Sequence record: PX915677.1 | DNA length: 64,000 bases | Strand: one strand, 5' to 3' | Source: a phage | Part shown: positions 23,791 to 45,420 of the stretch, piece after piece | How positions within the stretch are numbered: position 1 is the stretch's first letter | Layout of the letters: each line of letters begins with the position of its first letter | The notes under the pieces: model-generated | Databases searched by the model: none | What the model saw: only the letters and a program-made list of their open reading frames with translations | Told to the model about the DNA's origin: nothing | Translations under genes and position numbers: made by a program

Positions 23791-24303
23791 TTATTTTATC
23801 CAGTCTCTTTCTATATAGGAGGTTGTGAGCTTACGTCTCTCTGCTTCAGTGGAGAAGATGACTACTACACTTCCTTTAGTGTTACCACTAACACTTTGCT
23901 GTGTATCTGCTCTTGTGAAACTCACACGACCACCTGTTATGAAAACAATCTCATCAGCATGGTTTATACACTTAGTAAACCACTTAACAGAAGTATCAGC
24001 TGGTAGCAATAAAACTGTACCAACTTTAAGTTTCTTGTTTTTGATTGCCAAGTCAACCCAAGGAGTTATGTCTGAATATGGAGGATTACACCAAGTGTAA
24101 GTGTTTCTGAACTCAGAGAAATCATAGGTTAGAGAATCCATTTCCTCTGTTATATATTTTTCTAGTAGATGATTCTTGTCACTAGATGCTATATCACAGG
24201 AGAATTCAAACCTTGTGTTAAAGAAATCAAACAGCCATTTAGGGGTTTGCCATAAATCTCTAATGTCTTCTGGGGTATTACTAGATCTATAATCTGTTAC
24301 CAT
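23791..24303 (-). CDS. DNA N6-adenine methyltransferase (phage Dam-like)
   Basis: WQTPKWLFDFFNTRFEFSCDIAS and catalytic NPPY motif (TWCNPPYSDITPW). Confidence 0.75.
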   Translation of the reverse strand: MVTDYRSSNTPEDIRDLWQTPKWLFDFFNTRFEFSCDIASSDKNHLLEKYITEEMDSLTYDFSEFRNTYTWCNPPYSDITPWVDLAIKNKKLKVGTVLLLPADTSVKWFTKCINHADEIVFITGGRVSFTRADTQQSVSGNTKGSVVVIFSTEAERRKLTTSYIERDWIK

Positions 24304-25115
24304 TCTCTATCCAACCATGTCCAATCAAATAAATCTTCCGGAGTTTGACCAACAAAGAGCAGCCGAGCATTCTCAAGCATCTTCTCTTCATCTTCAGTAT
24401 CGAACTTCTTATAATATTCCATTCGTACTATATGATACATGGTCCACTTATCTGTAACATCAGCTAGTAATTTAGCTGCTGCCTTCTTCCCTATACCTTG
24501 ACGTCGAAGCTGAAGCTTACCACCCCACATAACCTCTTTACGTTCCCCACATCCGGGGATATTATCCGTACCGTCTCCAATCAACATTTGATAGAAGAAG
24601 TTTTGCCATGAGATTAAATCAGATACGTAGTGAGGGGGAACCTCTTTCTGCCTTTCTCCACAAGCCCAGCGATAATGCCATCCGGGAGTTATCAACAAAT
24701 CCTTGTCTCTAGTACAGATGATAGTATTCTTATCCCTACGTTGTCTTTCAGCTAGTGCATCATCAGCTTCTCTCCCAAAGACCTCAATGTATTCGTACTT
24801 GGCTTTAATGTAATCACCAACGTTTTGCCAGTGAAAAGGTCTTTCTCCGGGAGGTCTGTTTGCCTTGTAATCTTGCTGCTTAGCAACATCAAAACGGAAG
24901 TTACCACCTTCGCTGAAGTAGAACACAACCTTACTGCAACCTGAGCGAGCAATGATTGTATCTATCTTGTACTGAAGTCGTTCAATCATGAAATTGTAAT
25001 CAACTGGAACACGTCCTGTGTCAAGAAAGGGATGCTCCTGAGTAAGAGCACCCACTTCATATCGAAGAACGTCAGCATCCACTATAGCAACTTCAGGGAG
25101 CTTAACTTCTTCCAT
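24297..25115 (-). CDS. 5'-3' exonuclease / flap endonuclease
   Basis: GREADDALA and IGDGTDNIPG motifs of the FEN/Pol I 5' nuclease family; start at MEEVKL with SD aggatga. Confidence 0.7.
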   Translation of the reverse strand: MEEVKLPEVAIVDADVLRYEVGALTQEHPFLDTGRVPVDYNFMIERLQYKIDTIIARSGCSKVVFYFSEGGNFRFDVAKQQDYKANRPPGERPFHWQNVGDYIKAKYEYIEVFGREADDALAERQRRDKNTIICTRDKDLLITPGWHYRWACGERQKEVPPHYVSDLISWQNFFYQMLIGDGTDNIPGCGERKEVMWGGKLQLRRQGIGKKAAAKLLADVTDKWTMYHIVRMEYYKKFDTEDEEKMLENARLLFVGQTPEDLFDWTWLDREW

Positions 25116-25991
25116 AAATATCATCCTGAGCTTGAGCAATAATCCAATCTAGATCTGAGACTGCTGATTCGATGGTTGAGTCATTAAACAGTAGATATGT
25201 TTTTCTCTGTTCGCCTTCAATATATGAACGAGAGTCTCCATCAAAAGAGCAACCATCTCTAAGAACTTGGACAACTTGGACATGGAAATTCTTTTCTAGT
25301 TCTCGTACCTCTGCATCAAAACCTCCGTCAGTAAACACGACAATATCATCCTGACCTAGCCCTTCTTGTTTGATACTTTTTACAGCAAGATTCCCCATAT
25401 GATTGTTGCCAAACATAGGTTTTAAGAAGTCTTCACTTGTAGAAATCATCAAATCTCTTACAGACTTCCCTCCCCATTCTGGTCTAGGTTTTTCTTTCCA
25501 TTCACGATCTTCATAGCGTGCTAGAAAATTTTCTAGAGGTATTCCTAGTGCAGCAGCAGCTACTCTGTACATTGGCTCCTTGAAGGATTTGGTTGAATAT
25601 CCGTGGTGGTATGAATGGGCATTGACCCAAGCATTGGCTATCGTATCTTTACCACAACCCGGAGGCCCATTAAGAATTACTACTAAAGGCTTATAGTGGG
25701 AATCTCCCACCATATTGGTCAGTGTTGGATTGCCTTGAGATTCCATTTCTAATTGCTCCGTGTGGTCATGTGAGTAATCTACTGGAGAAGTTTTGTTACC
25801 AGTAACTTTAGGTAAAATCGCTCTAGTTGTTTCTACGTACCTACCGCCATCAACATTGATTTGAAACTCTACAAGTTCATTCTGTAATTCATACCCTGAT
25901 AAGTTGGATAGCTCCTCCAACTCATCTCTGACGAAATTTAAATGTTTGATTTTAATTGCAAGAGCTTTCTTTAAAGCTTTTACCTCTTCAT

Positions 25992-31168: not shown

Positions 31169-31557
31169 CGAATCACCAAAGGCTCTTCAGAGTACACAGG
31201 AGCGGCTATTTCTACAGGAGGTGCTGCCCTAAGGTCATTAAGTCTTACGCCCTTCAGCATGCCGTCTAGGTGGTCCTTTTTGGGGATTCCAACAGGGAAG
31301 TCGTCAATCCAGATATCGACGAAGAAACCTAGCTGTCGACAGACCTCATCCTTCTGCACACCATTACAAAAGATAATAGGAATCTGCAAACACTCTGCAT
31401 CAATCTTAATGTCGTGGTTATCGTACCCATTAGGCTCTGCAAAGCGATAAGTTACAAAGCGTACATCGTAGCCCTTTTCTTGCATTAATGCCACCACAGA
31501 GCGCCACAGCTTTTTATCTGAGGTGTAAGTGTCATCGTAATCTAAACCAATATTCAT
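31165..31557 (-). CDS. HAD-superfamily phosphatase (5'-nucleotidase-like)
   Basis: N-terminal DxDxT motif in MNIGLDYDDTYT; start at ATG 31557 with SD aagga. Confidence 0.4.
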   Translation of the reverse strand: MNIGLDYDDTYTSDKKLWRSVVALMQEKGYDVRFVTYRFAEPNGYDNHDIKIDAECLQIPIIFCNGVQKDEVCRQLGFFVDIWIDDFPVGIPKKDHLDGMLKGVRLNDLRAAPPVEIAAPVYSEEPLVIR

Positions 31558-31573
31558 GTCAAATCCTTTAGAC

Positions 31574-31596
31574 AAGAAAAGCCGCCCGAAGGCAGC
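31574..31596 (-). terminator. rho-independent terminator (minus strand)
   Basis: gctgcc-uucg-ggcggc stem (G-U pair valid only on minus strand) followed by UUUUCUUGU. Confidence 0.55.
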
Positions 31597-31603
31597 TTCT
31601 TAT

Positions 31604-31780
31604 TTAACTGTTCACTTTAGCTTCAAGTGTTTCGTTTTCAATACTCAAGTCAATCACTACACCAGTAAGCTCAACGACTGCTTGGCGAAGGGCATCTTTA
31701 CCCATAGAGTGTACTTGAGATAAGAAGAAAGCTTTACCTTCTTCAGTGGATAGGGTTTCTTTTAATTCAGAAGCAGTCAT
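31604..31780 (-). CDS. hypothetical small protein (58 aa)
   Basis: MTASELKETLSTEEGKAFFLSQVHSMGKDALRQAVVELTG...; SD aggaa; terminator immediately downstream. Confidence 0.4.
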   Translation of the reverse strand: MTASELKETLSTEEGKAFFLSQVHSMGKDALRQAVVELTGVVIDLSIENETLEAKVNS

Positions 31781-31789
31781 TGATATTCC

Positions 31790-31957
31790 TTATGTTATGT
31801 TATAAATTCGCATGATTGTACCACCATTGGCTTCAATAGCAGCAACCATTTGGTTTCGTTCTTCATCCGTGTAAACTAACACACTTCTAAACTCGCCTGT
31901 TGCATCAGTATAAAGGATGTTATATTTTGGAGGCGGTTTACGGTAAATACCTTCCAT
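31790..31957 (-). CDS. hypothetical protein
   Basis: Start at MEGIYRKPP, overlapping upstream stop (TGATG). Confidence 0.3.
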   Translation of the reverse strand: MEGIYRKPPPKYNILYTDATGEFRSVLVYTDEERNQMVAAIEANGGTIMRIYNIT

Positions 31958-32085
31958 CACTCTTTCTCCTCTCGTTCTTTCCACAGTTCGGCTAGCTCTA
32001 GATAGAACTCAGCCTCATCAAGACGACCTTGTTCATTACAGATGGCGCTCTGACGATAACACCAATCCGATGGCATCTCTTCCAC
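31957..32085 (-). CDS. hypothetical small protein (42 aa, GTG start)
   Basis: SD aaggag 6 nt before GTG; MEEMPSDWCYRQSAICNEQG... Confidence 0.25.
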   Translation of the reverse strand: MEEMPSDWCYRQSAICNEQGRLDEAEFYLELAELWKEREEKE

Positions 32086-32140
32086 TTCAATCTCCTTGTT
32101 ACGAACCAATCAATAAGAATAGTTCATTCGTCTTATTTAT

Positions 32141-32335
32141 TCACTCTACCAATGCAGGTACTTCTATCCTTTTAACTGTGAATGTCTTGTTTGGAAACTT
32201 TCGAACTAGCTCTGCTGCTTTGGTTATTGCTAAGTTCTCTGTCTCAAAGATACACAGTTGACCATTTAATGCTACGAGAGTGGAGCCACCACTGAAGACG
32301 GCCCAAGATTCATAATAACCACGAACACTCATCAC
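32141..32335 (-). CDS. hypothetical protein
   Basis: 64-aa ORF abutting downstream of 32332..32700. Confidence 0.35.
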   Translation of the reverse strand: MMSVRGYYESWAVFSGGSTLVALNGQLCIFETENLAITKAAELVRKFPNKTFTVKRIEVPALVE

Positions 32336-32700
32336 TCAACCTCAATATTATATAGAGTTTTCAGTGTATCTTTAATCCAAGCACGTCGTTTTGGATTCTT
32401 ATGATGTGCCCCGTTTTCCCTATCTCTAAAATATTGATCACATCCGAATGGGTATGTTGGGTCAAAAAACTTTTCTTGATTAAACATATTCTTCATGTCG
32501 TCAATATCTAAATGCTTTGTGAAATAGTAATACCTCTTATAACAGCGAAAGTTGAAGCATAATCCTTGATCTTCACTAAACCATTTTGGATAAATTCCAG
32601 TCTTAGCTATTTCATAATATTGGAGGAGGAAATCCTCCATCCCCCTCTCTTTAGCTAAACATCTCAATGTTCTGTAGATGATATTGGTTTCTTTCATCAC
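32332..32700 (-). CDS. hypothetical protein
   Basis: 122-aa ORF immediately downstream of the polymerase gene. Confidence 0.4.
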   Translation of the reverse strand: MMKETNIIYRTLRCLAKERGMEDFLLQYYEIAKTGIYPKWFSEDQGLCFNFRCYKRYYYFTKHLDIDDMKNMFNQEKFFDPTYPFGCDQYFRDRENGAHHKNPKRRAWIKDTLKTLYNIEVE

Positions 32701-32705
32701 TCACC

Positions 32706-34550
32706 TTAGTGTGTATGCATCCAGTTAAGTCCAATCTGACAATCAGATGCCAGAGGACATTCCATATTCAGATACTCGCCAGCTTTCTTAACACAAAGCT
32801 CGGTGTGCTCTTTGAGTTTCTGTACATCATTACGGTTTACTGAGAATTGACCTTCATCGTGCATATCAATTACCTTAGCACAACGAACCTTATCTTTCTC
32901 AATCCACTTGTTAAGGAACATCATAGCATATTTCATAACAACAGCACCAGCACATTGCAGGAGTGTGTTAAGGGCTTTATGAACCATAACCTTACCAGTG
33001 GCATCCCGTCTCATTGTAATCTTACGACCATCAACTCCAATCAAGTATCCTTGAGCAGCTTTCTCTGTCATACGATCAATGAGGATTGCAATACATGGGT
33101 TCTCTGCTAAGAAACGTGCTCGCATCACTGAACCTTCGTCAGCCCCACCACCTACAATTGAACCAAGCTTAGCATCACCAGCACCATAGTTGAATGCGTA
33201 GATAAACGTCTTAGCGTTGTCACGAGTAGGAAGACCAGCAAGTTTCTGGTTGTGGGAGTGGATATCACCTTCAAGGAGAATATCACGATACATAATAGCA
33301 GAAGCTAAACCACGTTCTGCCAGAGCTTTCTTAGCTGGGTTGTTCTCTTCAATTGCCTCAGCAAGCATATCCCTACACTCTTTAATGAGGTAGTGAGCGA
33401 GCATACGAAGTTCAAGTCCAGAACCATCATACCCTAAGAATACTTCTTTACCAGCGGGTATGTAATATTTGTAAGCACCTATAGGTTTATCTTTCTTCCC
33501 CGGCTTACCTTTCTCGTAAATTACGTTAGTACCTTTTCGTATATAACAACCATCAGGAACAACGTTAGTAATAACGAAAGGACGAGAGTGATCACTGTCT
33601 GAGTTATAGTCAGACTCAAACAAACTGCGACACTCGTGACCAAACAGACCACGGGAGGGAATATTAACCACGATACGATGTTTGAATCGAAAAGTCGGCG
33701 TAGCGCAGCTGTTAGCTTCTGCCGAAAGTTTACCATCTTCGCGTTCCTTTGCTATGAGTCCACTGATAAGACCTAGCCTGTGAGCCGCTACAACGCGTCT
33801 CTTAAGCAAACTTCCGACACTCCCTAGCTCACCCCCTAACCCTTCTTCAAGAGTCTCCTCGAGGTTTGTAGGAGCTGTAGGCCACTTGTTTGATGTGGCT
33901 AGTGCTTTCTTAATCTCATCAAACGTTACAGGATTACGGCGATTAGGGTTCAACCCCAAACCAAATACGTAAGCCTTCATGTAATTCTTAGTCTTAAACC
34001 TGAAATGCTTTTCTAAGAACTTCTTAATATCAGCGTCAACCATCTCGGCTGTCTGCTTCTGCTTAGCATTGCCTCGCATCCAAGCAGTATACCATGCTTG
34101 GTATGTTCCATACTTTCTCATATCTTTCTTAATTTCGAAAGTATTCCAAGGCTTCTTAGATACGTTAAACTCTGGAGGAAGGAAGCCCTCATCCATAAGA
34201 GCTTCTTTAACTCGTGCATCTTTAGATGGGTCAAAGTCTACATATTCGACACAGGTGAAAGCTCCACCAATATCTTCTCTCTTCAGCCCAACCCTATCAC
34301 AATAGGCTTGAGGCCACTTCTGTAAAGCTCCAGACTTCTTAAACGGCTTCATATAAGTAGAGCCATCTAATCTCATCTTAGGTAAGAGAGGAATCAACTC
34401 TCTGTCAATATTAACAATAATCTCTTTAAGGAGGTGAACATACCACCGAGCATTTCTTCGGTTGAAACTCACTCCGTGCTTTGCTTGCTTAGAGATTATA
34501 TCAGCGACAGTCATCTCTGTCAAAAATGGAAGAGCGTCCGGGTTGCTCAC
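32706..34550 (-). CDS. DNA polymerase, family A, polymerase domain only (no 3'-5' exonuclease domain)
   Basis: Motif A DGSGLELRMLAHY, motif B RDNAKTFIYAFNYGAG, motif C VIDMHDEGQF. Confidence 0.85.
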   Translation of the reverse strand: MSNPDALPFLTEMTVADIISKQAKHGVSFNRRNARWYVHLLKEIIVNIDRELIPLLPKMRLDGSTYMKPFKKSGALQKWPQAYCDRVGLKREDIGGAFTCVEYVDFDPSKDARVKEALMDEGFLPPEFNVSKKPWNTFEIKKDMRKYGTYQAWYTAWMRGNAKQKQTAEMVDADIKKFLEKHFRFKTKNYMKAYVFGLGLNPNRRNPVTFDEIKKALATSNKWPTAPTNLEETLEEGLGGELGSVGSLLKRRVVAAHRLGLISGLIAKEREDGKLSAEANSCATPTFRFKHRIVVNIPSRGLFGHECRSLFESDYNSDSDHSRPFVITNVVPDGCYIRKGTNVIYEKGKPGKKDKPIGAYKYYIPAGKEVFLGYDGSGLELRMLAHYLIKECRDMLAEAIEENNPAKKALAERGLASAIMYRDILLEGDIHSHNQKLAGLPTRDNAKTFIYAFNYGAGDAKLGSIVGGGADEGSVMRARFLAENPCIAILIDRMTEKAAQGYLIGVDGRKITMRRDATGKVMVHKALNTLLQCAGAVVMKYAMMFLNKWIEKDKVRCAKVIDMHDEGQFSVNRNDVQKLKEHTELCVKKAGEYLNMECPLASDCQIGLNWMHTH

Positions 34551-34566
34551 TTTATACTCCTTTAAA

Positions 34567-34989
34567 TTATTGGTAAAGTAAATCTGTAAATGCTTGATTA
34601 TCTTCTACTACATTCAGCATAGTTGCTTCATCACTATAAGCCCTAACCGTCCCATTGACAACTGTCCAAGGAGGGGGCGGAGGGGGTGTATGTGTAGCTC
34701 TGGCTTCACGAGGTTGTTCTCGTACCAGATGAGCCACTACTCTCTGATTAGCAACCTCTTCCCTTTCTCGAATAGCTCTTTGAATGTAAGCCAGCTTCAT
34801 ACCCCAAGCTTCTTCAAACTCCTGAGGGTGCTTATCACTGATAACCACATACTGACGTTCAGGAATACCAGAGCGAATCTCTGATAATAATTCATGAAAC
34901 AAATCCAGTTCATGCTCAGTGAGATTCATTTCAATATCATCCCACTTTAGAACTAGGAAACGGTTTTGGTGTCTAGCTGGTAATGGCAT
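34567..34989 (-). CDS. hypothetical protein (Pro-rich segment)
   Basis: 140 aa, contains a PPPPPP stretch. Confidence 0.4.
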   Translation of the reverse strand: MPLPARHQNRFLVLKWDDIEMNLTEHELDLFHELLSEIRSGIPERQYVVISDKHPQEFEEAWGMKLAYIQRAIREREEVANQRVVAHLVREQPREARATHTPPPPPPWTVVNGTVRAYSDEATMLNVVEDNQAFTDLLYQ

Positions 34990-34992
34990 AAC

Positions 34993-35277
34993 TCAACCTC
35001 TTGGGAATGGCATCAAAAATTCCACAGCAGATTTAATTTCATTATTGATTCTTGAATCACGATAAGAGATAAACTTACCTTTACTATCACGTAACATTAC
35101 ATGGGTTCTGGCTGTTTTGTGAGGGAGCAATGTGATACTAGTTGGAATGGCATCAATCCCTACAGCGTATTTGTCAATAGTCTTACTTTCAGCCAACAGA
35201 TAAGACCAAGTACGCGGTTTCTGCTCCGGGCGGTTAGGGTATGTGTCCCGAATCTGAACCATAGCTAATTTATTCAT
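34993..35277 (-). CDS. hypothetical protein, tandem paralog 1
   Basis: Shares KTARTxVxLR..GKFISY...A.E.L.PFP.G with 35279..35533. Confidence 0.45.
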   Translation of the reverse strand: MNKLAMVQIRDTYPNRPEQKPRTWSYLLAESKTIDKYAVGIDAIPTSITLLPHKTARTHVMLRDSKGKFISYRDSRINNEIKSAVEFLMPFPRG

Positions 35278-35278
35278 A

Positions 35279-35533
35279 TTAAACTCCTTTAGGGAATGGG
35301 ATGAGATTTTCTACTGCAACACGGAAAGATTTTTCTACGTTCTTATTCTTATAAGAAATGAATTTACCATCAGCACCACGAAGGATTACATTAGTGCGAG
35401 CTGTTTTTGGGTTAATCCCAATCATCCGTTCGATGATCTTGTTTGATTTGTTGTGGTGGTTAGTGAAAGTCCACTTAACAATCTTGCCATCTCTGGTTAC
35501 ATCAAAAATATTTACGATTTTTACAATAGACAT
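35279..35533 (-). CDS. hypothetical protein, tandem paralog 2
   Basis: See 34993..35277. Confidence 0.45.
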   Translation of the reverse strand: MSIVKIVNIFDVTRDGKIVKWTFTNHHNKSNKIIERMIGINPKTARTNVILRGADGKFISYKNKNVEKSFRVAVENLIPFPKGV

Positions 35534-35567
35534 ATTTATTACCTAAGAAGTTTATTTTGGTTTATAT

Positions 35568-35596
35568 AAAAGAAAAGGCCACCCATTTGGGTAGCC
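35568..35596 (-). terminator. rho-independent terminator (minus strand)
   Basis: ggcuaccc-aaau-gggugguc-type stem perfect only with G-U on minus-strand RNA, followed by UUUUCUUUU. Confidence 0.6.
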
Positions 35597-35601
35597 TCAT
35601 A

Positions 35602-35919
35602 TTACGATGAGCTTAAAGCTCCTTTGCGTGCTCCAGCTGCTTTTCCAGCTCGATCACCACTTTTGCCGCCGTTTGAACGGTTTGAGCTGACTGATTCAAC
35701 ACGTAAGTTGCTTGACGCATTAGAGCCTCCAGACTTGACAGCTCGTTTGTGTCCAACGTCTTTACCTCTGACAGCAGCTTTTCCATCGCGCTTTTCAACG
35801 ATGCGACGTGCACGGTGGCGCTGAGCATCTCCGCTCTTGCTCCCAACGCCTGTTTCACCACGGGCAATTGCGGTACGTCTTTCTTGTGCATAATCTCTCT
35901 TTCCTACATGATCTGCCAT
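35602..35919 (-). CDS. basic Lys/Arg/Gly/Ser-rich low-complexity protein
   Basis: SD aaggag; TAATGTATA element 36 nt upstream and terminator downstream; A/T-rich third codon positions match the genome, unlike the overlapping frame 35613..35891. Confidence 0.5.
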   Translation of the reverse strand: MADHVGKRDYAQERRTAIARGETGVGSKSGDAQRHRARRIVEKRDGKAAVRGKDVGHKRAVKSGGSNASSNLRVESVSSNRSNGGKSGDRAGKAAGARKGALSSS

Positions 35920-35955
35920 TTAAAACTCCTTAATATATCAGTGTACACTAAGGAG

Positions 35956-35964
35956 TATACATTA
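35956..35964 (-). promoter_or_regulatory. candidate phage-specific promoter element TAATGTATA (minus strand)
   Basis: 36 nt upstream of ATG 35919. Confidence 0.4.
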
Positions 35965-35975
35965 TAAGTTACTGT

Positions 35976-36713
35976 TTAAGCTTTCTTTTCCATTGCTTTA
36001 ACAATCGCCTTACAGAAACCAGAACGAACAATATCATCTGATTCACCATCTACAATCTCAGCAAACTCATACAGATCGTGTTCATCAATAAAGTTAGTAG
36101 CCCAAGTTAGACCACTCTCGCGACCACGCATATCATGCTGGTTTGTATCACCCATACAGAACAATTGAGAGGTTTCTCCCAATCGAGTCATGATGGAGAA
36201 GGCTTCATCCTTAGTTGTGTTCTGGAACTCATCAACAATAACAATAGCATCATTGAAAGAACGACCACGGAGATATTCCAGAGGTACAAACTCAATGTTA
36301 CCATTTCCGATTTGGCATTCATAGAATCCCTTACCATATCGCTGAGTAATAACATCAATGATAGGCATCAGGTAAGGCTCAAACTTCTCACGCATTCCTC
36401 CCGGAAGTAACCCAAGAGAGTTTCCCATGCCAACCGAAGGGCGACTCAGAATGATCTTCTGAATCTTACCACTCTTCAGTGCATCGATAACCGTGGAAGT
36501 GATTACAAAGGTCTTACCACAGCCCGCAGGAGCGTCTGTGAACACAACTTGTTTAGTCTTAATAGCATTGAGTAGCTCAGACTGAAACTGGTTCTGAGGG
36601 ACTACAGGCTTTGCTAAAACCACCTCTTCATACTCTCGCTTACCTTTACGAGTAACAAGTGCTTCCCGACGAAGGTCTTTCCGTGATTCTTTCCGTGATT
36701 GACGACGACTCAT
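35976..36713 (-). CDS. PhoH-like ATPase
   Basis: Walker A VFTDAPAGCGKTF, Walker B-like IVIVDEFQN; PhoH family size. Confidence 0.7.
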   Translation of the reverse strand: MSRRQSRKESRKDLRREALVTRKGKREYEEVVLAKPVVPQNQFQSELLNAIKTKQVVFTDAPAGCGKTFVITSTVIDALKSGKIQKIILSRPSVGMGNSLGLLPGGMREKFEPYLMPIIDVITQRYGKGFYECQIGNGNIEFVPLEYLRGRSFNDAIVIVDEFQNTTKDEAFSIMTRLGETSQLFCMGDTNQHDMRGRESGLTWATNFIDEHDLYEFAEIVDGESDDIVRSGFCKAIVKAMEKKA

Positions 36714-36895
36714 TTACGCTCTCCAATTTCTTCGTAATGACACTCAGTAGTTAAGCAGTCTTTACAGATTGCTGTATAAACCCTGACGTTAGTAAATCGT
36801 TTGTTCTTCCCTTTGGTTGGAGAGCCTTTGGCAAGCTCTCTGATAACCTTGTTACTTAAGTGAAGGTTTGTTCCTTCACATTTAGAGCACTTCAT
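36710..36895 (-). CDS. small zinc-ribbon protein
   Basis: CSKC ... CKDC cysteine pairs in 61 aa. Confidence 0.4.
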   Translation of the reverse strand: MKCSKCEGTNLHLSNKVIRELAKGSPTKGKNKRFTNVRVYTAICKDCLTTECHYEEIGERK

Positions 36896-37211
36896 GGTTC
36901 ATATCTTTATGAATCCTGTAAACAGCTGTCGCCATACAAGCAACAGCCTCGTTGTGTGGGAGGTGCATCCCTGTAGAACCATCCCAATCTTTGAACTCAT
37001 TGTCAAAGACTCCGGTAGGCTCTGGATATAGAGCTTGCAGCTCCACTAGATCATTAGCAACTTGTTGCCATTTATCATCAGACCAGATAGGGTCATCCAA
37101 CCAGTAATACAAATAGGAATGGATGATCAATTGCCTTCTATGCCGATTTATTACTTCAGCGGGACTTATCTCACTTCCATTTGAAGTCCTAAATGTATTA
37201 CTGTCAATCAT
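36882..37211 (-). CDS. hypothetical protein
   Basis: 109-aa ORF; HSYLYYWLDDPIWSDD segment of unclear affinity. Confidence 0.35.
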   Translation of the reverse strand: MIDSNTFRTSNGSEISPAEVINRHRRQLIIHSYLYYWLDDPIWSDDKWQQVANDLVELQALYPEPTGVFDNEFKDWDGSTGMHLPHNEAVACMATAVYRIHKDMNHEVL

Positions 37212-37393
37212 TTTACAACCTTAAATTTGAATGTTGTTGGGTGGTAATAGTGCAATCTATTGATAGTGTGCTTTGTTTCAAGGTATATCCTGCAAGAGTG
37301 GCACATGACATGGGTCAGACCAGTTACAGGGTTAGGTTTGAAGTTGGCGACAGGCTTCTCTTTCTTACAGAAGCTACAGACTTTCTTTTCCAT
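37208..37393 (-). CDS. small zinc-ribbon protein
   Basis: Start at MEKKVCSFCKK with SD ggag; CxxC...CxxC. Confidence 0.35.
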   Translation of the reverse strand: MEKKVCSFCKKEKPVANFKPNPVTGLTHVMCHSCRIYLETKHTINRLHYYHPTTFKFKVVK

Positions 37394-37607
37394 CTTTTCT
37401 CCAGTGGTCAACGAATTGCTGAAACACTTTATGGTCGAATGTGAAACCGCGAGCAATCCCACATTCTACGAAAGTAGAAGGCATATAGTCTACATCATCT
37501 TTAGATGTATGACCATAAACTTGAATAAGCTTTTTAATCTTATCCTTCTCTCTTCGAGGAAGCATCCTAAATGCCTCCTGAATATCTGTAATATGTTTGA
37601 TTTTCAT
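37374..37607 (-). CDS. hypothetical protein
   Basis: 77-aa ORF. Confidence 0.35.
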   Translation of the reverse strand: MKIKHITDIQEAFRMLPRREKDKIKKLIQVYGHTSKDDVDYMPSTFVECGIARGFTFDHKVFQQFVDHWRKDGKESL

Positions 37608-37619
37608 CAGAAATTCCTG

Positions 37620-37754
37620 CTAATCCTCTGGATTATGAGAACAGCAATACTCACATACCCCGCAACATGGACAAATTTCTACACTTGGGTCATATGCATC
37701 ATCCACTGTCATTCCGCACTTGGTACAGAACACGTCGTCATCTTCTTCCAACAT
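37620..37754 (-). CDS. small Cys-rich protein (44 aa)
   Basis: MLEEDDDVFCTKCGMTVDDAYDPSVEICPCCGVCEYCCSHNPED; SD ggag; TAATG coupling; not in ORF track. Confidence 0.35.
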   Translation of the reverse strand: MLEEDDDVFCTKCGMTVDDAYDPSVEICPCCGVCEYCCSHNPED

Positions 37755-38002
37755 TAATTCTCCAAACAAGAATCATTCATCAGTAGCTCCAAACTATCAA
37801 GTGTGTAGTAATAACCAAAGAATGGGGCTGTTGACTTGGAAACCTTTTTATCAAAAAGAGATTGAGAAAGATTTATTTCTACTCCAGCATCTTCAAGCTG
37901 TTGTTTTGTAGGGTAGTCAGTGAAAGAGCAAAGTACTTCTCTGTCCTCCCCTCTGTCCGTTTCTTCGACACGACTCAGAATCCAAATACTTTTACTAGCC
38001 AT
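37754..38002 (-). CDS. hypothetical protein
   Basis: Start at MASKSIWIL with SD ggag immediately after the ThyX stop. Confidence 0.35.
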   Translation of the reverse strand: MASKSIWILSRVEETDRGEDREVLCSFTDYPTKQQLEDAGVEINLSQSLFDKKVSKSTAPFFGYYYTLDSLELLMNDSCLEN

Positions 38003-38004
38003 TT

Positions 38005-38661
38005 TTAACTCTCCACAGTTTTCTTCAGAGCTGCCCATGAGATTGGGTAGAGTTTAGCCATCTCTTCATCCAGAGATTTAGCAAACACTCGAACTTCATA
38101 TTGAGCGTGAGATGAGAGTCGCTGACGACACAACTCAAACCAGCCATACAAAGAACCAGTCCACACCCACTCAGTGATCATCCCCTGAGGAAGAACAAAT
38201 CGAGCTTGCTCTGGTGCAATAAATTCAATCAACTTGTCATATGCTGCTAGAGAAGCTTCATATGCATCGTTAATCAGCATTAATGCTTCAGCTCGCTCTC
38301 CGTTGATGAGTTGAATCCCTGAACCTGCATGGAGGTCCGAAGGTCTCGCAAAAATCTCTTTAGGGATGAAGACTTCAACTGCTCCATCTTTATACCGCCG
38401 GGACATTTCGTTCCACGAGAATCCAACCTGATGCTTCTGTAGTTGACGAGCGATTGCAATTGGAGCCTTACAACGAAAGGACACTTGTGGGTGACGGAAC
38501 GGAGTGCAGTGTTTCTCTCTAGCCAAGAAGTTAATCAGCCTAGTATCACGATCATTCAAATCACCCTCTCGTACAACACCAAAAGAAACTCTTGCAGCAT
38601 TAACAACAGTTTTATCACTGCCCATAGCTTCAATCAATGTTGCTTGCAATTGTTCATTCAT
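38005..38661 (-). CDS. thyX: flavin-dependent thymidylate synthase (ThyX-like), variant signature
   Basis: ThyX-like ...KHQVGFSWNEMSRRY tail (canonical RHR appears as KHQ) and overall size. Confidence 0.55.
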   Translation of the reverse strand: MNEQLQATLIEAMGSDKTVVNAARVSFGVVREGDLNDRDTRLINFLAREKHCTPFRHPQVSFRCKAPIAIARQLQKHQVGFSWNEMSRRYKDGAVEVFIPKEIFARPSDLHAGSGIQLINGERAEALMLINDAYEASLAAYDKLIEFIAPEQARFVLPQGMITEWVWTGSLYGWFELCRQRLSSHAQYEVRVFAKSLDEEMAKLYPISWAALKKTVES

Positions 38662-39133
38662 ACTTCAACTTCTCCTTGTTATAAGCAATCTCTGCTTCCT
38701 CTGGAGTATGGAAAGTTCCTAAATGCTTAGTCTTTCCGTTAACTCCGATTATAGCTCTGAATTTTGTACCACTAGCCGTCTCTCTGATGTAAACACCCAT
38801 TGGAAGTTTTCCAGCTTTTCCGGCTCTATTGTATTGTTTTCTGTTATGACAGTTTGTAGATGGGTCAACATCTCTTAGGTTTTTAAGAGAGTCATCCAGT
38901 TTAATCTGGTTGATGTGATCAATCTCAAACTCAGGCATCTTTCCATAAGAGAAAAACCAAGCTAATCGACATGCTCTGTAAGATTTCCCTTCATAATAGA
39001 TGTACCTGTAACCTAATGTTGAGACACACCCAGCAATGTTCCCTGATACTCTCCTACCTTTGGTATTCTTCCACCTAAAGATTCCAGTATCAGGGTCATA
39101 TGCTAAGTCTTCTTTTATCTTATCAGTTAACAC
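38654..39133 (-). CDS. HNH homing endonuclease with AP2-type DNA-binding domain
   Basis: YRACRLAWFFSYGKMPEFEIDHINQIKLDDSLKNLR plus AP2-like GVYIRETASGTKFRAIIGVNGKTKHLGTFHTPEEAEIAY. Confidence 0.7.
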   Translation of the reverse strand: MLTDKIKEDLAYDPDTGIFRWKNTKGRRVSGNIAGCVSTLGYRYIYYEGKSYRACRLAWFFSYGKMPEFEIDHINQIKLDDSLKNLRDVDPSTNCHNRKQYNRAGKAGKLPMGVYIRETASGTKFRAIIGVNGKTKHLGTFHTPEEAEIAYNKEKLKYE

Positions 39134-39398
39134 CTAAAGCTGTATCCAAAAATGCTTTCAGGTTTGCTTCAGTCTGCATACCAGAGAGGCTGTAATGTGT
39201 TCCACTGTTACGGTCAGGTACAACAAAAGCAGGGATGCTTCGTACACCATACTTAACAGCTTGTTCACGACCATCACCTTCAAGGATGTTAATCTCTTCC
39301 ACTTCTACATCAAACTCCTTAACAACCTTCTCAAAGGTAGGAGCCATTGCTTTACATGGAGCACACTGATCACTATAAAACTTAATTACTTTAGGCAT
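39123..39398 (-). CDS. thioredoxin-like protein
   Basis: CxxC active site in FYSDQCAPCKAMAP, about 90 aa, SD aagga. Confidence 0.65.
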   Translation of the reverse strand: MPKVIKFYSDQCAPCKAMAPTFEKVVKEFDVEVEEINILEGDGREQAVKYGVRSIPAFVVPDRNSGTHYSLSGMQTEANLKAFLDTALGVN

Positions 39399-39407
39399 GT
39401 AAATCCT

Positions 39408-39586
39408 TATGCAGTCAGGAGGTGAAGCAGGAATGGGATAACAACAGCTACGATAACCATGATAGTTGATGCTGTTTGAATCTCACCTTTCTTATCAGGA
39501 GTTTCTTCAATAAGCTTACCAGAAGCCCAATAAATACCACCACCAATAAAGATAGCCCAAATACCCCATACGATTGCTGATAACAT
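39408..39586 (-). CDS. small two-TM membrane protein (59 aa)
   Basis: MLSAIVWGIWAIFIGGGIYWASGKLIEETPDKKGEIQTASTIMVIVAVVIPFLLHLLTA; SD aagga; preferred over listed ORF 39448..39720. Confidence 0.4.
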
Positions 39587-39646
39587 ATATCTATATCCTT
39601 ATAAATAAGTTCGCCCCACCTCGGGTTAGGAGACAGGGCGGAGGTT

Positions 39647-40210
39647 TTAGTAAGACACGTCACCACTTGAATGGGACATGTTGCTCTTGACGAAGTAGCA
39701 ATACTTGCCAAGACCTTCATTAATTTCTTGAAGCATACTCTGATCGACAGGGTAAGTGGCTAAATCGCCATCAAACTCATCCATCTTCTCAATAATACAC
39801 ATCAAGGTCATGCACATATCAGAGAGCATACCGTCCATGTCTAGATCAGCATTACCCTCTGAGAACCAAGCGTGGGATAGGTAGTTAGCTGCTGTAGCAT
39901 CCACTTTAACACAGTGGTATCGCATACGTTCAGCAATACGATCTCCTACTTGTCGTGCGTAATCTTCCAGCTCATCAAACATACCATGAACACCCTGAAA
40001 TCCTGCACCAGAAACGTTCCAGTGGTAGTTCTTAGCTTTGATATGCAAGAGTTCCATGTTAGCTTGTAAGCAGCTCAGGATGTGTTCTAGGCTGTTTGCA
40101 CTAATCATGCCTTGCATTGTTTCAAGGCGAGAGATTGAAAGCTCAGACCGGTCTAACATACTATAACTGTCACGACCAATCTCAGGTAAATCAAAGACAT
40201 TCTTATGCAT
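39647..40210 (-). CDS. Dps/ferritin-like protein
   Basis: NYHWNVSGAGFQGVHGMFDELEDYARQVGDRIAERM matches the Dps ferroxidase-centre region; start at MHKNVFD with SD ggag. Confidence 0.55.
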   Translation of the reverse strand: MHKNVFDLPEIGRDSYSMLDRSELSISRLETMQGMISANSLEHILSCLQANMELLHIKAKNYHWNVSGAGFQGVHGMFDELEDYARQVGDRIAERMRYHCVKVDATAANYLSHAWFSEGNADLDMDGMLSDMCMTLMCIIEKMDEFDGDLATYPVDQSMLQEINEGLGKYCYFVKSNMSHSSGDVSY

Positions 40211-40532
40211 TTGGGTTTTCTCCATCAAGTTCAACTGAGTTAGCAACATTACGTGCAATATTATCCATTACCTGCTGGGTAATTACGATGCAGTTCTGTG
40301 GGTCTACTGACTTAGAACGCCCCATTTCAGGGTCATACACCTTAACTCGCTTAGCAGTTGAACCTGTGACCTGAAGAACCTTCAACAGATATCCCTGATT
40401 ACCAATAGACCAAGCAACAACATCACGATTCTTGATAAAGCGACCAAGCATATCACGATGATAAAACTGTTGCATCACCTTGGATTTTGTAATCTCTTCA
40501 GTGGGCGGGGCCACTTTACTCAAATCTAACAT
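40203..40532 (-). CDS. hypothetical protein
   Basis: 109-aa ORF. Confidence 0.4.
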   Translation of the reverse strand: MLDLSKVAPPTEEITKSKVMQQFYHRDMLGRFIKNRDVVAWSIGNQGYLLKVLQVTGSTAKRVKVYDPEMGRSKSVDPQNCIVITQQVMDNIARNVANSVELDGENPNA

Positions 40533-40604
40533 AACTCTCTCCTGTAAAATACAAATTCTTATTGTACTCTATATACATTTGAGAGTTATCATATCTACTA
40601 CCAA

Positions 40605-40814
40605 TCAGTAGTAAATTACTTTAGACATAAAAGAACCAGTGTTAGGGTCTTCATACCAGCGATGTATGTCAGCGCTTTTTACTATTGTGCCCAGAGTCTT
40701 CAACTGTTTCTTAGCAATACGAGCCTCTTTGCGAGTGTCAAACAATTTGATGTTATCTTTTCTCATGTGTTGCTCAAGATTCCAAACAACATGAATAGCC
40801 CACATCTTTTTCAT
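40605..40814 (-). CDS. small protein, tandem triplet family member 1
   Basis: 69 aa ending ...VIYY; family shares W...R.EAR..KKQ...YY. Confidence 0.4.
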   Translation of the reverse strand: MKKMWAIHVVWNLEQHMRKDNIKLFDTRKEARIAKKQLKTLGTIVKSADIHRWYEDPNTGSFMSKVIYY

Positions 40815-41023
40815 TAGTAATGTACCTTTCCGCTAATATAAACACGACCAGAGGAATACTCTCTGGCCTTATGAATACTGATGCTCTTGATCATATCCAT
40901 ATTAAACATAGATTTTTTAAAATCTCGAGCTTGTTGGCGAGTGGGTAGTGCAGTCATAGTCATGCCACCTGATGCCCACTTAATCTTTGCTAACCAAAAT
41001 TGTCTCATGGTGATTGGTCTCAT
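40814..41023 (-). CDS. small protein, tandem triplet family member 2
   Basis: 69 aa ending ...KVHY. Confidence 0.4.
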   Translation of the reverse strand: MRPITMRQFWLAKIKWASGGMTMTALPTRQQARDFKKSMFNMDMIKSISIHKAREYSSGRVYISGKVHY

Positions 41024-41220
41024 TAATAATAAACCTTACTGTTAACACAAAAAGCACCTTCACTATTCACGATAGCTTTTCCTAGTGTAACCTTATTAAG
41101 TCTAAAAGTAGATTTGTATTGATTTTTGACCCTACGTGCGTGCTCTCGAGTCTTAACAAAATCTACAGCTACTAACTCTCCAGTCGTGTTGTCATGTACA
41201 CGAACAATCCACTTTTTCAT
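41023..41220 (-). CDS. small protein, tandem triplet family member 3
   Basis: 65 aa ending ...KVYY. Confidence 0.4.
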   Translation of the reverse strand: MKKWIVRVHDNTTGELVAVDFVKTREHARRVKNQYKSTFRLNKVTLGKAIVNSEGAFCVNSKVYY

Positions 41221-41754
41221 TTACACACCTTTAGATGCAACCACACCTTCAGAGTTATTATAACGACCCTTCACTGCGTAGGAATGTTCCCCTGCATGAG
41301 AGTGCTCAAACATAACCATTTGACCAACACGCATACCAGCACGAACTCGTAAGCTGTGGTGCTTGGTTACGTTATGGAATTCAAATGTCAGCTTACTGCT
41401 ATTAAATCCTGCATCTGCCCAACCGGCGTGAAGGTGGTTCAAACCACAACGAGCCATAGACGAACGCAAAACAAACAGGCTTGAGATGTTATCTGGAAGG
41501 TTAAACTCCTCCATAGAGTGAGCCAAGAAGAACTGACCCGGAGTGATAACCAAACCCTCTTCAGGAATCTTTACTTCCTTCCACTGAAGATTCTCTTTCG
41601 CATCAATATCAACGATGCCATCAGCCTGTTCTTCAACAAGGATAGTATCACCAATACGGATATCCACACTAGCAGCGTTAACATATTTATGCTCCGCATC
41701 CAGATAACCATTGTCAATTACATCGTGCAGTTCAATACTTCCTAGTAAACCCAT
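41221..41754 (-). CDS. dCTP deaminase (dUTPase-fold)
   Basis: LHAGWADAGFNSSKLTFEFHN...RVGQMVMFE pattern of the Dcd/dUTPase family. Confidence 0.55.
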   Translation of the reverse strand: MGLLGSIELHDVIDNGYLDAEHKYVNAASVDIRIGDTILVEEQADGIVDIDAKENLQWKEVKIPEEGLVITPGQFFLAHSMEEFNLPDNISSLFVLRSSMARCGLNHLHAGWADAGFNSSKLTFEFHNVTKHHSLRVRAGMRVGQMVMFEHSHAGEHSYAVKGRYNNSEGVVASKGV

Positions 41755-41763
41755 TCTTATTCC

Positions 41764-43077
41764 TTAGTTATTTTCGTCTATTTCAAAAGAGATTCCACGA
41801 CCCGCTTCATCGGCAAACCGAACTGTACGGGTTTGAGGCTGCAACACTTCAGGGTTGTTGGCAACAAATTGATCAGCGAGACTATCTCCCAAATCCTGTT
41901 CCATATCTTCATCAGTCCACACAGCCCTAACAGGTGCGTTGATATCACCAACAGCGAAACCCTGACCAGAGAACTGACGTGCGCTAACAGTTAAGCCGTT
42001 TGGTCGACCACGAGAGGGTCTAGCCATCCATCGCTCCATAGAATCACTTGTAATACCAAGAGCTTCTTCAAAAGATGTTCTACGAGTAGGGCTTTCTCTT
42101 CGTGACTCTTGTGCTCGACGCATTGCAGGGGCTACAAACACCCCTTCAATTGCATTGTGTCGGTTAGGTTCCTCTTCTCGACCAAGCAGATCACCACCCG
42201 TGTTAGTCGTTAAATTTGTCAACCCCTCAGACCAATACGCATGAATCTGACCAGAACCGTGAAGACTAGACATAATCTGAATCTCTTCATAAGGGATTCC
42301 AAAGAATCGACTCATGTCTCGGTTAACACAATATAGAGCACTTGTTGTATCTTCAATAAGAGAAACCTGACCTAATCCATTGACTAGATGACTAACTGGC
42401 TGAGGTGTGGGAAGATATCGAGTTTGGGCCATGTATTGATGCGCAACTGCTGGAGAGGAAAATCTCAACACTTGTGAGTTAGGCCACTTCTTGTGAACAT
42501 ACCTGATTTCACGACTAGAAACAACCACTGGACAAGGGGAAGTCATAGCCAAATATCCGTGAGAAGTCATGAATAAGTTGTCAAGAGTCATCGCACCACG
42601 GCACATCATAGGAAAATTATCCAATACCTCTTCAATAGAAGTAGGATAATTAAACATGAATTGGATACGAACCCCATTCCACTGAAACTCAATAATATCA
42701 GTGAATGTTAATTGAGAACCCCCAGCATAGGATTCGTTTGTAGCTTCAGCAAGAAGTGATGCATATTCAATATCTTGTGACTCTAGCCATTCCTTCACAT
42801 TACTTTCAATCTCCCGTCCAAGCTCTTGCCAACGATCAGTTGGGATGAAAGTGTTTTGAGTTCTTGGTGTTTGTCCTCTGACAATAAAGATATCAATGTC
42901 ATGTGGAGCTATGTTATTAAGGACAGCATCACGAACAGCCCCACCAGTAATGATGGGACAGATACCATCTGGAATCAAGTTGTTGTTAATCAACTGTTCA
43001 ATGAAGTGACGACCAACAGTGATATCAGGTTGTTGAGCAACCTTATCTTCAATTTGGTTAATCGGGATAACAATCAT
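41764..43077 (-). CDS. nucleotidyltransferase with CCA-adding/poly(A) polymerase-type head domain
   Basis: PIITGGAVRDAVLNNIAPHDIDIFIV closely matches the GGxVRD...DxD class-II tRNA nucleotidyltransferase motif; start at MIVIPINQ one nt after the exonuclease stop. Confidence 0.55.
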   Translation of the reverse strand: MIVIPINQIEDKVAQQPDITVGRHFIEQLINNNLIPDGICPIITGGAVRDAVLNNIAPHDIDIFIVRGQTPRTQNTFIPTDRWQELGREIESNVKEWLESQDIEYASLLAEATNESYAGGSQLTFTDIIEFQWNGVRIQFMFNYPTSIEEVLDNFPMMCRGAMTLDNLFMTSHGYLAMTSPCPVVVSSREIRYVHKKWPNSQVLRFSSPAVAHQYMAQTRYLPTPQPVSHLVNGLGQVSLIEDTTSALYCVNRDMSRFFGIPYEEIQIMSSLHGSGQIHAYWSEGLTNLTTNTGGDLLGREEEPNRHNAIEGVFVAPAMRRAQESRRESPTRRTSFEEALGITSDSMERWMARPSRGRPNGLTVSARQFSGQGFAVGDINAPVRAVWTDEDMEQDLGDSLADQFVANNPEVLQPQTRTVRFADEAGRGISFEIDENN

Positions 43078-43078
43078 T

Positions 43079-43636
43079 TTACATTTTCCAATATAATGAA
43101 GGTGGGTCGTAAGGGTCAAATCCCGTGAGTTCACACAAGAAAAGATAAACCTTAACAGTCAAGTTAACGTCCTGTTCACAATAAGTAAACATATCTTCAG
43201 TGAAAGCATCCCATGCTTCCTCTTGCTCACCGTAGTCACCTTTAAGTTCCTCTAAGAACTCACCCCATTGCTTCAAGCCGTGACCTCTTGGGCCACGTCT
43301 AGGGTCGCCTTTCGGATACTCAGGACTGTCGCCAATACGGTCAGGTTTAAGATATCGACTAAGACATAAAGTGTCAAAGACGTTAAAATTATATTTAATC
43401 AAAGAGGGATACATCTTCTTCAGAGCAGGTAAGTCGAAGTCAATAATATTATGACCCACTAGTACATCTGCTTCTGTCAGTTTACGAATCCCGTCTTCAA
43501 TTTGGTGAGGCCGATAGCCCCACCTTTCACCAGTTTCAACATCGAAGATATAAATACACCATACTTTAGTTATGTCATCGTACAGTGCATTACTCTCGAT
43601 ATCGAATGCAAACACTTTCTTCTTTTTCTTTACCAC
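43079..43636 (-). CDS. DnaQ-like 3'-5' exonuclease (stand-alone proofreading domain)
   Basis: Exo I FAFDIES, Exo [13 protein letters not shown], Exo III YCEQDV. Confidence 0.7.
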
Positions 43637-45420
43637 GGTGAAGCTCCATCTGCTTGGTTGACGAGAGAAGCTGCATCCTCTCCGTTAGTTAAAACGAATG
43701 GATTATCTTCATCAACTTCAAAGTCTTCCCTTTCTACAAGTCTACCGGTTTCGCTGATATACTTAGTATAACAGACACCTGTCTGACCGTAGTTACGTTC
43801 TTTCAGTAATCGAATGACTGAGAGGTTCTTAGCTAAGCCGTCAGCTTGCTTATCACGCTCAAAGCCAATGATACACTGACACCAACGCATAAGAGAACGA
43901 GAGCCAGTGAACTGTACTTCACGTACCTGTCCACCTTCTTCATGAGGAGCACCACCTGCCGGAGCATTAAGGTGAGATAACACGAAAGCGGTAAAGTCTA
44001 ATTCTTTACACATACCAGCAAGCTCGGAAGCAATCTTACTGATTTCAGTGTTAATCTCTGAAGGTGTTAAATGAGATACCAGAGCGGTAATGTTATCAAG
44101 GATGATGAACTTACACTGGTTTTCAACTACCCAGAAACGGATACACTGTTTAATGTCTTCCCATTCATTCTGTCCGAAGTTGTCATACAAGAAGAATTTG
44201 TCTGCATAACGAAGTGCTTCATTACGCAAATCTTCCTCGTCATATTCAACATCAGGTCGGTGGAAAGGAATTGATGCTGACTTACCAGCAATGTTCTTAA
44301 CAGACATGCCTACCTTCTCTTCCAAGAAGAAGCCACCTCCATTAAAACCATGCTCTAAGCACAGATGAGCAACCAGCTCGTGAGCAATGAGTGTTTTACC
44401 ACTCCCTACTCCACCACCAATTGCTACCACCTCTCCCCATCGAATACCGAAGGTCATCTCATTCAGAGTCTTCCACGGATACGGGATACCCCACTCCGCT
44501 TTCTTCAGAGCATCATCAAGACAATCAAAGATTGTTACAGCACCAGCAGGAGATTCCCGCTTTGCTGAATACTTGAGAATGTTGAATAACTCTTGACCAC
44601 GACCAGACAGAAGCATGTCATTCGCATCCTTAATCTCTTTCTCCACACCGTTGTATGGGAAGGTTCCTTTAGGAATACGAGCAAACTTGACATGAGGGAA
44701 TAAAGAACGACCTTTTGTTAAAGCTATCTCACCTGCATCATCGTTGTCCATGCAGAGCACAACCTCCTCAAAACCATTTACGAAGTCTCGGTTACGAGAC
44801 AACACAGAAGAGATTGAACCTGCACCGAACGGTAAAGAAACACATGCTGGTTTAATGTTTGTTGCATTTGTAAAAGCTGTAAGGACATGGAAACCTGACA
44901 TACAGGATAGCGGGTCTTCAAAAATGAAGAGCTTCTTGTTGTACACATCTCCACGTTGAGCTTGTGCCATACCAAACAAATCTGCTTCTTTCACACTGCC
45001 GACGTAATAGAACTTCTTACTATCTAGCAGCTTAACCTCGTACCCGACAATGTTTCCATCACGTTCACGAGGAAAGAAGTAACTGTCTGGTGTCTGACCA
45101 TCAGTTTGACTCAGACCAATGCGACACTCAAACCGCTCTGATACAGCTTTAGGGATTAAACGGCGAGTGAGTTCACCCTGAGGAAGCTCTAAGCAATCAT
45201 CTAAGACTTCTCTCAACTCTTCAGGGGATAACTCTTTCTTCTCGTTTGGAGTAGGTGTAGTGCCCTTTTCGAACACTTCGTAATTCCCACAACGGTTACA
45301 ACTTCCCCACTCCTCACCAGTCTCTTCGTTACGGAAGAGAATCATGTGGTTGTGGGTTTTATCACGACCATGAGAGATACATTCCTTACAACCTGTGTCT
45401 CCCAAAATGATCTTTGACAT
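43630..45420 (-). CDS. DNA primase/helicase (T7 gp4-like)
   Basis: N-terminal Cys4 zinc-binding domain, TOPRIM (LCMDNDDAG), DnaB-type Walker [10 protein letters not shown] and Walker B FIILDN. Confidence 0.85.

Follow-up and report, generated by a model that had tools for sequence, protein, structure and literature searches.

Sequence evidence for a T7-type family A DNA polymerase divided at its inter-domain linker into two genes in a Kuravirus genome

How does a phage come to carry the polymerase and exonuclease parts of one replicative enzyme as separate genes, and would the two products still act together? The question is raised by the phage sequence PX915677.1, a 64,000-nt stretch of which (the window) was analysed here. 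A first-pass annotation of the window had noted a family A DNA polymerase divided into exonuclease and polymerase genes 8.5 kb apart and had offered two readings, proofreading supplied in trans or disruption of the gene by a mobile element. By nucleotide match of the polymerase open reading frame (ORF), PX915677.1 is a Kuravirus (Gordonclarkvirinae; phiEco32/SU10-like) podophage of E. coli. The ORF shares 98-99.5% nucleotide identity with those of dozens of E. coli and Shigella Kuravirus podophages (vB_EcoP_SU10, YF01 and Bas90/91 among them), and 94 phage records span at least 80% of it in a nucleotide search. Every gene of the region lies on the minus strand, and the features on which the argument turns are these:

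32706..34550, minus strand, family A DNA polymerase, polymerase domain only, 614 aa (PF00476, homology to T7 gp5, motifs A, B and C)
34551..43078, minus strand, intervening block of about 22 ORFs (ORF list; annotation of phages SU10 and KBNP1711)
43079..43636, minus strand, stand-alone 3´-5´ exonuclease of the PolA-type DEDDy class, 185 aa (PF01612, T7 gp5 N-terminal domain)
43630..45420, minus strand, T7 gp4-like bifunctional primase-helicase, 596 aa (PF03796 DnaB_C, a weak Toprim match, phrog_239)

The identification of the longer ORF as a polymerase with motifs A, B and C was confirmed by both PF00476 and alignment to T7 gp5. PF00476 (DNA_pol_A) is the sole Pfam family in the ORF (83.1 bits, against a curated cut-off of 34.3 bits; residues 361-611), residues 8-613 match phrog_17 'DNA polymerase' (E 7e-79) and the top PDB sequence match is T7 DNA polymerase (E = 1e-32), with homology to T7 gp5 residues ~207-704. 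Motif A (DxxxxE) is formed by D375 and E380, D375 aligning with T7 gp5 D475; motif B (RxxxKxxxY/F) by R443, K447 and Y451, aligning with R518, K522 and Y526; and motif C (HDE) by H564-D565-E566, aligning with D654 and E655. Across an alignment of 103 homologues these residues are invariant, except for D565 and E566, which are at least 90% retained. An AlphaFold2 (AF2) model built from the same alignment has a predicted local distance difference test score (pLDDT) of 91.9 and a predicted template modelling score (pTM) of 0.81. When this model was compared with the PDB using Foldseek, the top 27 matches were all T7 DNA polymerase (best E 7e-26, template modelling score about 0.6), with Bst, Taq and mycobacterial Pol I coming next; Foldseek gives no aligned ranges, and the comparison confirms the T7-like fold rather than the domain boundaries. 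As modelled, the product is a family A polymerase with a right-hand fold of the Pol I/T7 type, and DNA-templated polymerase activity is predicted for it. The ORF starts with GTG preceded by AAAGGAG, and both the start and its own Shine-Dalgarno (SD) sequence are kept in relatives.

Relative to T7 gp5, the thumb is enlarged by a helical and beta insertion of ~100 aa (residues ~135-240), and a further beta-rich insertion of ~40 aa lies directly before motif A (residues ~327-370). Both are common to Pseudomonas phage PaP4 and are modelled with high confidence, and neither carries a conserved acidic triad in the 103-homologue alignment. These insertions may be docking sites for the exonuclease subunit, thioredoxin or helicase. 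As an observation apart, the polymerase ORF contains, 27-55 nt from its 5´ end (34495-34523, minus strand), a sequence that fits the sigma-70 consensus perfectly (TTGACA-17 nt-TATAAT, the -10 element being extended by TG). A scan for promoters and terminators found consensus sites no more numerous than expected from shuffled sequence. Because the site is identical in SU10 while its -35 element is lost at synonymous positions in KBNP1711, it may have arisen incidentally from the conserved L-T...D-I-I codons or be an internal promoter specific to this lineage.

For the shorter ORF, described earlier as a stand-alone DnaQ-like exonuclease, the stand-alone character and the Exo I, II and III motifs stood, while the DnaQ label did not. 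PF01612 matches the protein at 34.7 bits (curated cut-off 23.6 bits), T7 gp5 residues 3-178 align with it at E = 1e-11, and it hits the PHROG families phrog_403 and phrog_38876 ('DNA polymerase exonuclease subunit') as well as phrog_192. The motif residues are D12 and E14 (Exo I, DxE), N63 and D68 (Exo II, Nx2-3(F/Y)D) and Y152 and D156 (Exo III, Yx3D), all invariant when the protein is aligned with the N-terminal domain of T7 gp5 and three further stand-alone exonucleases. Exo III reads YCEQD, and because this is a Yx3D motif we class the protein as a PolA-type DEDDy exonuclease rather than a DnaQ/epsilon-type DEDDh enzyme. The latter label is ruled out by the missing Hx4D form of Exo III and by the lack of a match to PF00929 (RNase_T/DnaQ), Pfam giving only PF01612 and a weak PF13482. 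The 185-aa protein is predicted to have 3´-5´ exonuclease activity on mismatched primer ends.

The gene for this protein is under strong purifying selection. Its ratio of nonsynonymous to synonymous substitution rates (dN/dS) is 0.015 in comparison with SU10 and 0.088 in comparison with KBNP1711 (dS about 1), values that resemble those of the neighbouring primase-helicase gene. The protein is closest to the proofreading domains of fused T7-type polymerases, with which it shares 37-45% identity. Among its 80 closest relatives in IMG/VR, 75 form the N-terminal domain of a compact fused polymerase (575-640 aa), and at these same 75 loci the fused gene sits immediately after a primase-helicase gene.

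Where does the break between the two halves fall? Joined end to end, the exonuclease and polymerase are colinear with T7 gp5, the junction lying near T7 residues 205-210 in the linker between the exonuclease and polymerase domains (the exo/pol linker). The exonuclease is homologous to T7 gp5 residues 1 to ~205, linker included, and residue 1 of the polymerase aligns with about residue 207, which gives the N-terminal boundary that alignment to T7 gp5 had been expected to provide. On the phrog_17 profile the exonuclease occupies positions 667-826 and the polymerase positions 836-1233, adjacent and without overlap. Nearly all members of the 103-sequence alignment (96) begin within 20 aa of the polymerase's first residue, while six fused homologues carry a DEDD domain of 152-169 aa that lies wholly N-terminal of the polymerase start column. 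It is with this N-terminal extension of the fused homologues that the exonuclease profile aligns, ending where the 614-aa polymerase begins.

The statement that the polymerase lacks a 3´-5´ exonuclease domain, and with it the possibility that careful alignment would reveal exonuclease motifs in the polymerase N-terminus, was examined directly. With the Pfam cut-off relaxed to E <= 10, no exonuclease family was found in residues 1-371 or in the thumb insertion searched by itself, and a profile-profile match between the exonuclease and polymerase alignments was confined to columns contributed by the six fused homologues. On these two grounds we reject an exonuclease hidden in the polymerase N-terminus, and the earlier description of a family A polymerase divided between two genes is upheld. 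The sequences place the division at the exo/pol boundary, and both resulting genes are intact.

The arrangement around the two genes also proved to be as first described. The exonuclease gene lies immediately downstream of the primase-helicase gene (phrog_239 'DNA primase/helicase', E 1e-175): its GTG start, with GGAG 7 nt upstream, overlaps the TAA stop of that gene by 7 nt (GTGGTAA, 43630-43636). This overlap of stop and start suggests that translation of the exonuclease is coupled to that of the primase-helicase. One base past the exonuclease stop codon comes the ATG of the next gene. The stretch from that stop to the polymerase start measures 8,528 nt and holds ~22 ORFs, in line with the 8.5 kb and about 20 genes of the first count; the SU10 record annotates 23 genes in this interval. 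The block encodes a nucleotidyltransferase, dCTP deaminase, thioredoxin, an HNH-AP2 endonuclease, ThyX, a small 'ligase' ORF, PhoH and many small ORFs. SU10 and KBNP1711 share the whole block except the HNH gene, and outside the HNH insertion its nucleotide identity to SU10 is 94-98%.

How old is the split, and did a mobile element cause it? The same split, with the same polymerase N-terminus (...VA(D/E)IIS(K/R/Q)Q...), occurs in KBNP1711, PKM.Hi.22.6, PaP4 and the uncultured viruses L089 and L074. The break point is the same in the Nieuwekanaalvirus KBNP1711, where the exonuclease gene directly follows the primase-helicase gene, and in L074, where a lone 55-aa ORF separates exonuclease from polymerase and the contig begins before any primase-helicase gene could be seen. 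The two genes are about 6 kb apart in the Grimontviridae phage PKM.Hi.22.6, and the 35-kb metagenomic contig L089 has the order primase-helicase, HNH, exonuclease, five small genes, polymerase. Across the split lineages the distance from exonuclease to polymerase ranges from 0.25 kb to >9 kb, about 40-fold. The exonuclease comes directly after the primase-helicase in SU10, KBNP1711 and PaP4, and one endonuclease gene is interposed in PKM.Hi.22.6 and L089. The top 114 database relatives of the polymerase (34-98% identity) are all without an exonuclease domain, fused forms ranking lower. Vibrio phage Rostov-1 and Prochlorococcus phage P-SSP3 were left out of these comparisons, their annotation being too sparse or incomplete to classify.

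Mobile elements have been active in and around these genes. In the window, three HNH ORFs were recognised:

38654-39133, minus strand, HNH-AP2 homing-endonuclease gene, 159 aa (phrog_99)
27702-28160, a similar HNH-AP2 ORF
23213-23614, a further HNH ORF

The first of these is inserted between the thioredoxin and ThyX genes and is extra relative to SU10, which has no counterpart of the segment 38682-39138. In KBNP1711 (locus L005, 23290-24132) and PKM.Hi.22.6 (locus L003, 21816-22521) a second cut divides the polymerase gene itself, leaving pieces of ~455 aa and 126-139 aa, and many database homologues of ~450 aa (72-74% query coverage) fit this twice-cut pattern. The gap in the KBNP1711 polymerase gene holds an endonuclease ORF and two group-I-intron-like matches of 48.1 and 34.7 bits (Rfam threshold 50); the PX915677.1 polymerase gene has no such interruption. 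An intron has also been reported in the LUZ24 polymerase gene (PMC3517423). The HNH-AP2 insertion, the KBNP1711 intron-like interruption and the LUZ24 intron are events separate from, and later than, the split.

It has nevertheless to be asked whether a recent insertion or rearrangement broke a fused polymerase gene and left a crippled or decaying exonuclease fragment. The active homing endonucleases, the HNH-AP2 gene absent from SU10, the intron-like insertion with its endonuclease and the two-piece polymerase of PKM.Hi.22.6 are what such an account would draw on, and the split could plausibly have originated in an ancient insertion at the domain boundary, the single 55-aa ORF between the halves in L074 being a case in point. 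As a recent or damaging event, however, this is very improbable and, as a part of the first-pass annotation, largely refuted. Both ORFs are complete, each with its own ribosome binding site and start, and keep all their catalytic residues; the exonuclease evolves at a dN/dS of 0.015-0.09; the boundary is the same in at least four cultured phage groups as well as in uncultured viruses, with the start point shared by 96 of 102 homologues; and the intervening genes are conserved core replication and nucleotide-metabolism genes that make up no single element. Because the break point is shared across phage groups and the exonuclease is under purifying selection, the split is old and stable and not the product of recent disruption. 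We favour one ancient split followed by gene accretion, since the break point is shared, the exonuclease stays beside the primase-helicase and the length of the gap varies. The ancestral order would have been primase-helicase followed by a fused exonuclease-polymerase gene, as in T7 gp5. A break at the inter-domain linker would then have allowed genes to accrete in the gap, the exonuclease gene keeping its ancestral place beside the primase-helicase while replication and nucleotide-metabolism genes and small ORFs pushed the polymerase gene 8.5 kb downstream.

The split itself is already known: it is annotated in GenBank, has its own PHROG families, has been published and is ordinary for this phage group. 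In amino acid sequence the PX915677.1 polymerase matches SU10 gp051 completely (100%, with 99% nucleotide identity) and the exonuclease shares 99.5% identity with SU10 gp075, and the GenBank records of both SU10 and KBNP1711 name the small gene 'DNA polymerase exonuclease subunit'. Over positions 30000-46444, PX915677.1 is 94-98% identical to SU10 in nucleotide sequence, aside from small mosaic differences that include two small SU10 segments missing from PX915677.1. Kuravirus and other Gordonclarkvirinae (phiEco32, SU10, YF01), together with KBNP1711, share the gene order primase-helicase, exonuclease, nucleotidyltransferase, dCTP deaminase ... polymerase. A 2023 paper on YF01 describes the separation of exonuclease and polymerase as common to the whole group and its relatives (PMC9965538). 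Earlier, the phage tf paper (PLoS One 2012) reported separate polymerase and proofreading exonuclease genes in all LUZ24-group phages and phiEco32, crediting the phiEco32 case to the phiEco32 genome paper (PMC3517423).

In the LUZ24-like Bruynoghevirus phages (LUZ24, PaP3, PaP4, tf) the halves are named 'DNA polymerase part I / part II'. PaP4 has the same break point, its polymerase N-terminus aligning as ...VADIIS(K/R)Q..., and its exonuclease gene overlaps the end of the primase-helicase gene as in PX915677.1; its polymerase shares the thumb and pre-motif A insertions. The LUZ24-like phages differ in having about 2 kb and seven small genes between the halves, in a genome of 44-46 kb, and their exonuclease and polymerase share 34% and 45% identity, respectively, with those of PX915677.1. 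T7 gp5 has the same catalytic motifs and fold, with a Y526-type motif B and a C-terminal His, and likewise has a gp4-like primase-helicase as partner, but it is a single chain, whereas PX915677.1 uses two genes 8.5 kb apart. The thioredoxin-binding loop of the PX915677.1 polymerase is in part different from that of T7 gp5, and the thumb and palm have extra insertions. Polymerase and proofreader are also on separate polypeptides in the E. coli Pol III core (alpha and epsilon/DnaQ), where they function as one complex, although that enzyme belongs to family C rather than A, its exonuclease is DEDDh rather than DEDDy, and there is no homology beyond the DEDD superfamily.

Do the two proteins then act as one enzyme? 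In our preferred reading, to which we assign a probability of about 85%, a T7-type polymerase is encoded as two proteins cut at the linker that likely work as a non-covalent two-subunit enzyme. The 185-aa exonuclease would dock on the polymerase subunit where the N-terminal domain of T7 gp5 sits and, once docked, would proofread the primer 3´ end in trans. The complex would act with the gp4-like primase-helicase, a separate 5´-3´ exonuclease and possibly the phage thioredoxin. A two-subunit polymerase with proofreading in trans is the likely mechanism, although both the physical association and the actual proofreading are matters that we infer. The model is supported indirectly: the linker segment is still present in the exonuclease, the closest homologues of which are genuine proofreading domains, the catalytic residues are conserved under selection, and both genes are present throughout the group (PMC9965538). 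Some points weigh against it. Single-sequence AF2 prediction of the concatenated exonuclease and polymerase was uninformative (pLDDT 34), and a joint model of a fused chain would in any case not separate the explanations. No biochemical study of such a split phage PolA was found in the searchable literature. In addition, the exonuclease is coupled to the primase-helicase and not to the polymerase, an arrangement compatible with association with the helicase or with the exonuclease acting alone.

This last point leads to the main rival, in which the exonuclease would be independent of the polymerase, bound to the helicase or engaged in primer or Okazaki-fragment processing, recombination or degradation of host DNA, and the polymerase would work without proofreading. 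Its coupling to the primase-helicase gene, beside which it stays in most split lineages examined, and the variable distance to the polymerase gene (0.25 kb to >9 kb) would fit such a role. We consider it unlikely, however, given that the exonuclease is most closely related to proofreading domains of fused polymerases of the T7 type, that the segment joining exonuclease to polymerase domain in T7 gp5 is retained and that all group members keep both genes (PMC9965538). The adjacency is also simply explained as inherited, because the whole polymerase follows the primase-helicase in fused ancestors. A split that is only apparent, with a split intein, trans-splicing or frameshifting rejoining the halves, is for practical purposes excluded. 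Some relatives do have introns in their polymerase genes, but Pfam finds no intein/Hint domain in either ORF, Rfam finds no intron in 30000-47000, and the polymerase gene is uninterrupted. About 22 expressed-looking genes, moreover, occupy the 8.5 kb between the halves; the exonuclease gene ends in a normal stop with the ATG of the next gene directly behind it, and the polymerase gene has its own SD and start, conserved in relatives.

Beyond the two-subunit enzyme, the gene order is all that points to two further ideas, which we regard as quite doubtful. In the first, the exonuclease might act as a dissociable fidelity module, its dosage being set by translational coupling to the primase-helicase and not by the polymerase; in the second, the exo/pol linker might be a recurrent hotspot for gene insertion. 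If the former were true, the replisome could run with or without proofreading and the mutation rate would be tunable; if the latter, the gap would in the various lineages have widened from 0.25 kb to >9 kb. The split is of little weight as a discovery, being a catalogued feature of phiEco32-like and LUZ24-like phages. What remains of value is an uncharacterised natural family A polymerase with its proofreading domain as a separate subunit: its biochemistry could reveal how a non-covalent T7-type exonuclease-polymerase interface behaves, and the enzyme could supply separable polymerase and proofreader reagents. The common break point, the exonuclease beside the primase-helicase and the about 40-fold variation in the gap make a small evolutionary addition.

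The region as a whole holds a T7-like replication set, comprising primase-helicase, polymerase subunit, exonuclease subunit, phage thioredoxin and separate 5´-3´ exonuclease. The remaining members and neighbouring genes are:

24297..25139, minus strand, separate 5´-3´ exonuclease, T7 gp6/FEN-like, 280 aa (phrog_107 'exonuclease', E 1e-64)
36882-37211, minus strand, 109-aa ORF named 'DNA ligase' in relatives (phrog_6466)
39123..39398, minus strand, phage thioredoxin (phrog_22 thioredoxin domain, E 8e-13)
41764-43077, minus strand, nucleotidyltransferase, 437 aa, directly after the exonuclease gene (phrog_12715, E 2e-245)

The 5´-3´ exonuclease corresponds to gp029 'exonuclease' in the SU10 record, and a separate 5´-3´ exonuclease subunit is likewise listed in the YF01 paper (PMC9965538). 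It represents a third Pol I-type activity carried on a gene of its own. T7 uses host thioredoxin, whereas PX915677.1 encodes its own, whose binding to the polymerase is putative; by analogy with T7 gp5 and host thioredoxin it may be a processivity factor for the polymerase, a hypothesis raised for the related phage Privateer (PMC7881722).

The primase-helicase ends in an acidic, W-terminated tail (...NQADGASPW), and a 248-aa protein encoded at 28586-29332 on the minus strand has an acidic C-terminal tail (...YEDDNDSPF). Both recall T7 gp2.5 and gp4, which have acidic, aromatic-ended tails that bind gp5. The 248-aa protein was considered as a gp2.5-like single-stranded DNA-binding protein (SSB) and rejected, since its sequence is significantly similar neither to the PaP4 SSB nor to any PDB chain. 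The 109-aa 'DNA ligase' ORF is far too short for a whole ligase; it may represent no more than a ligase-like N-terminal domain. The nucleotidyltransferase has a CCA-adding/poly(A)-polymerase head domain (PF01743, E 0.002, sub-threshold) followed by a long uncharacterised C-terminal region; the GTG start at 43134 in the ORF table overlaps the exonuclease gene, and the ATG at 43077 is the likelier start.

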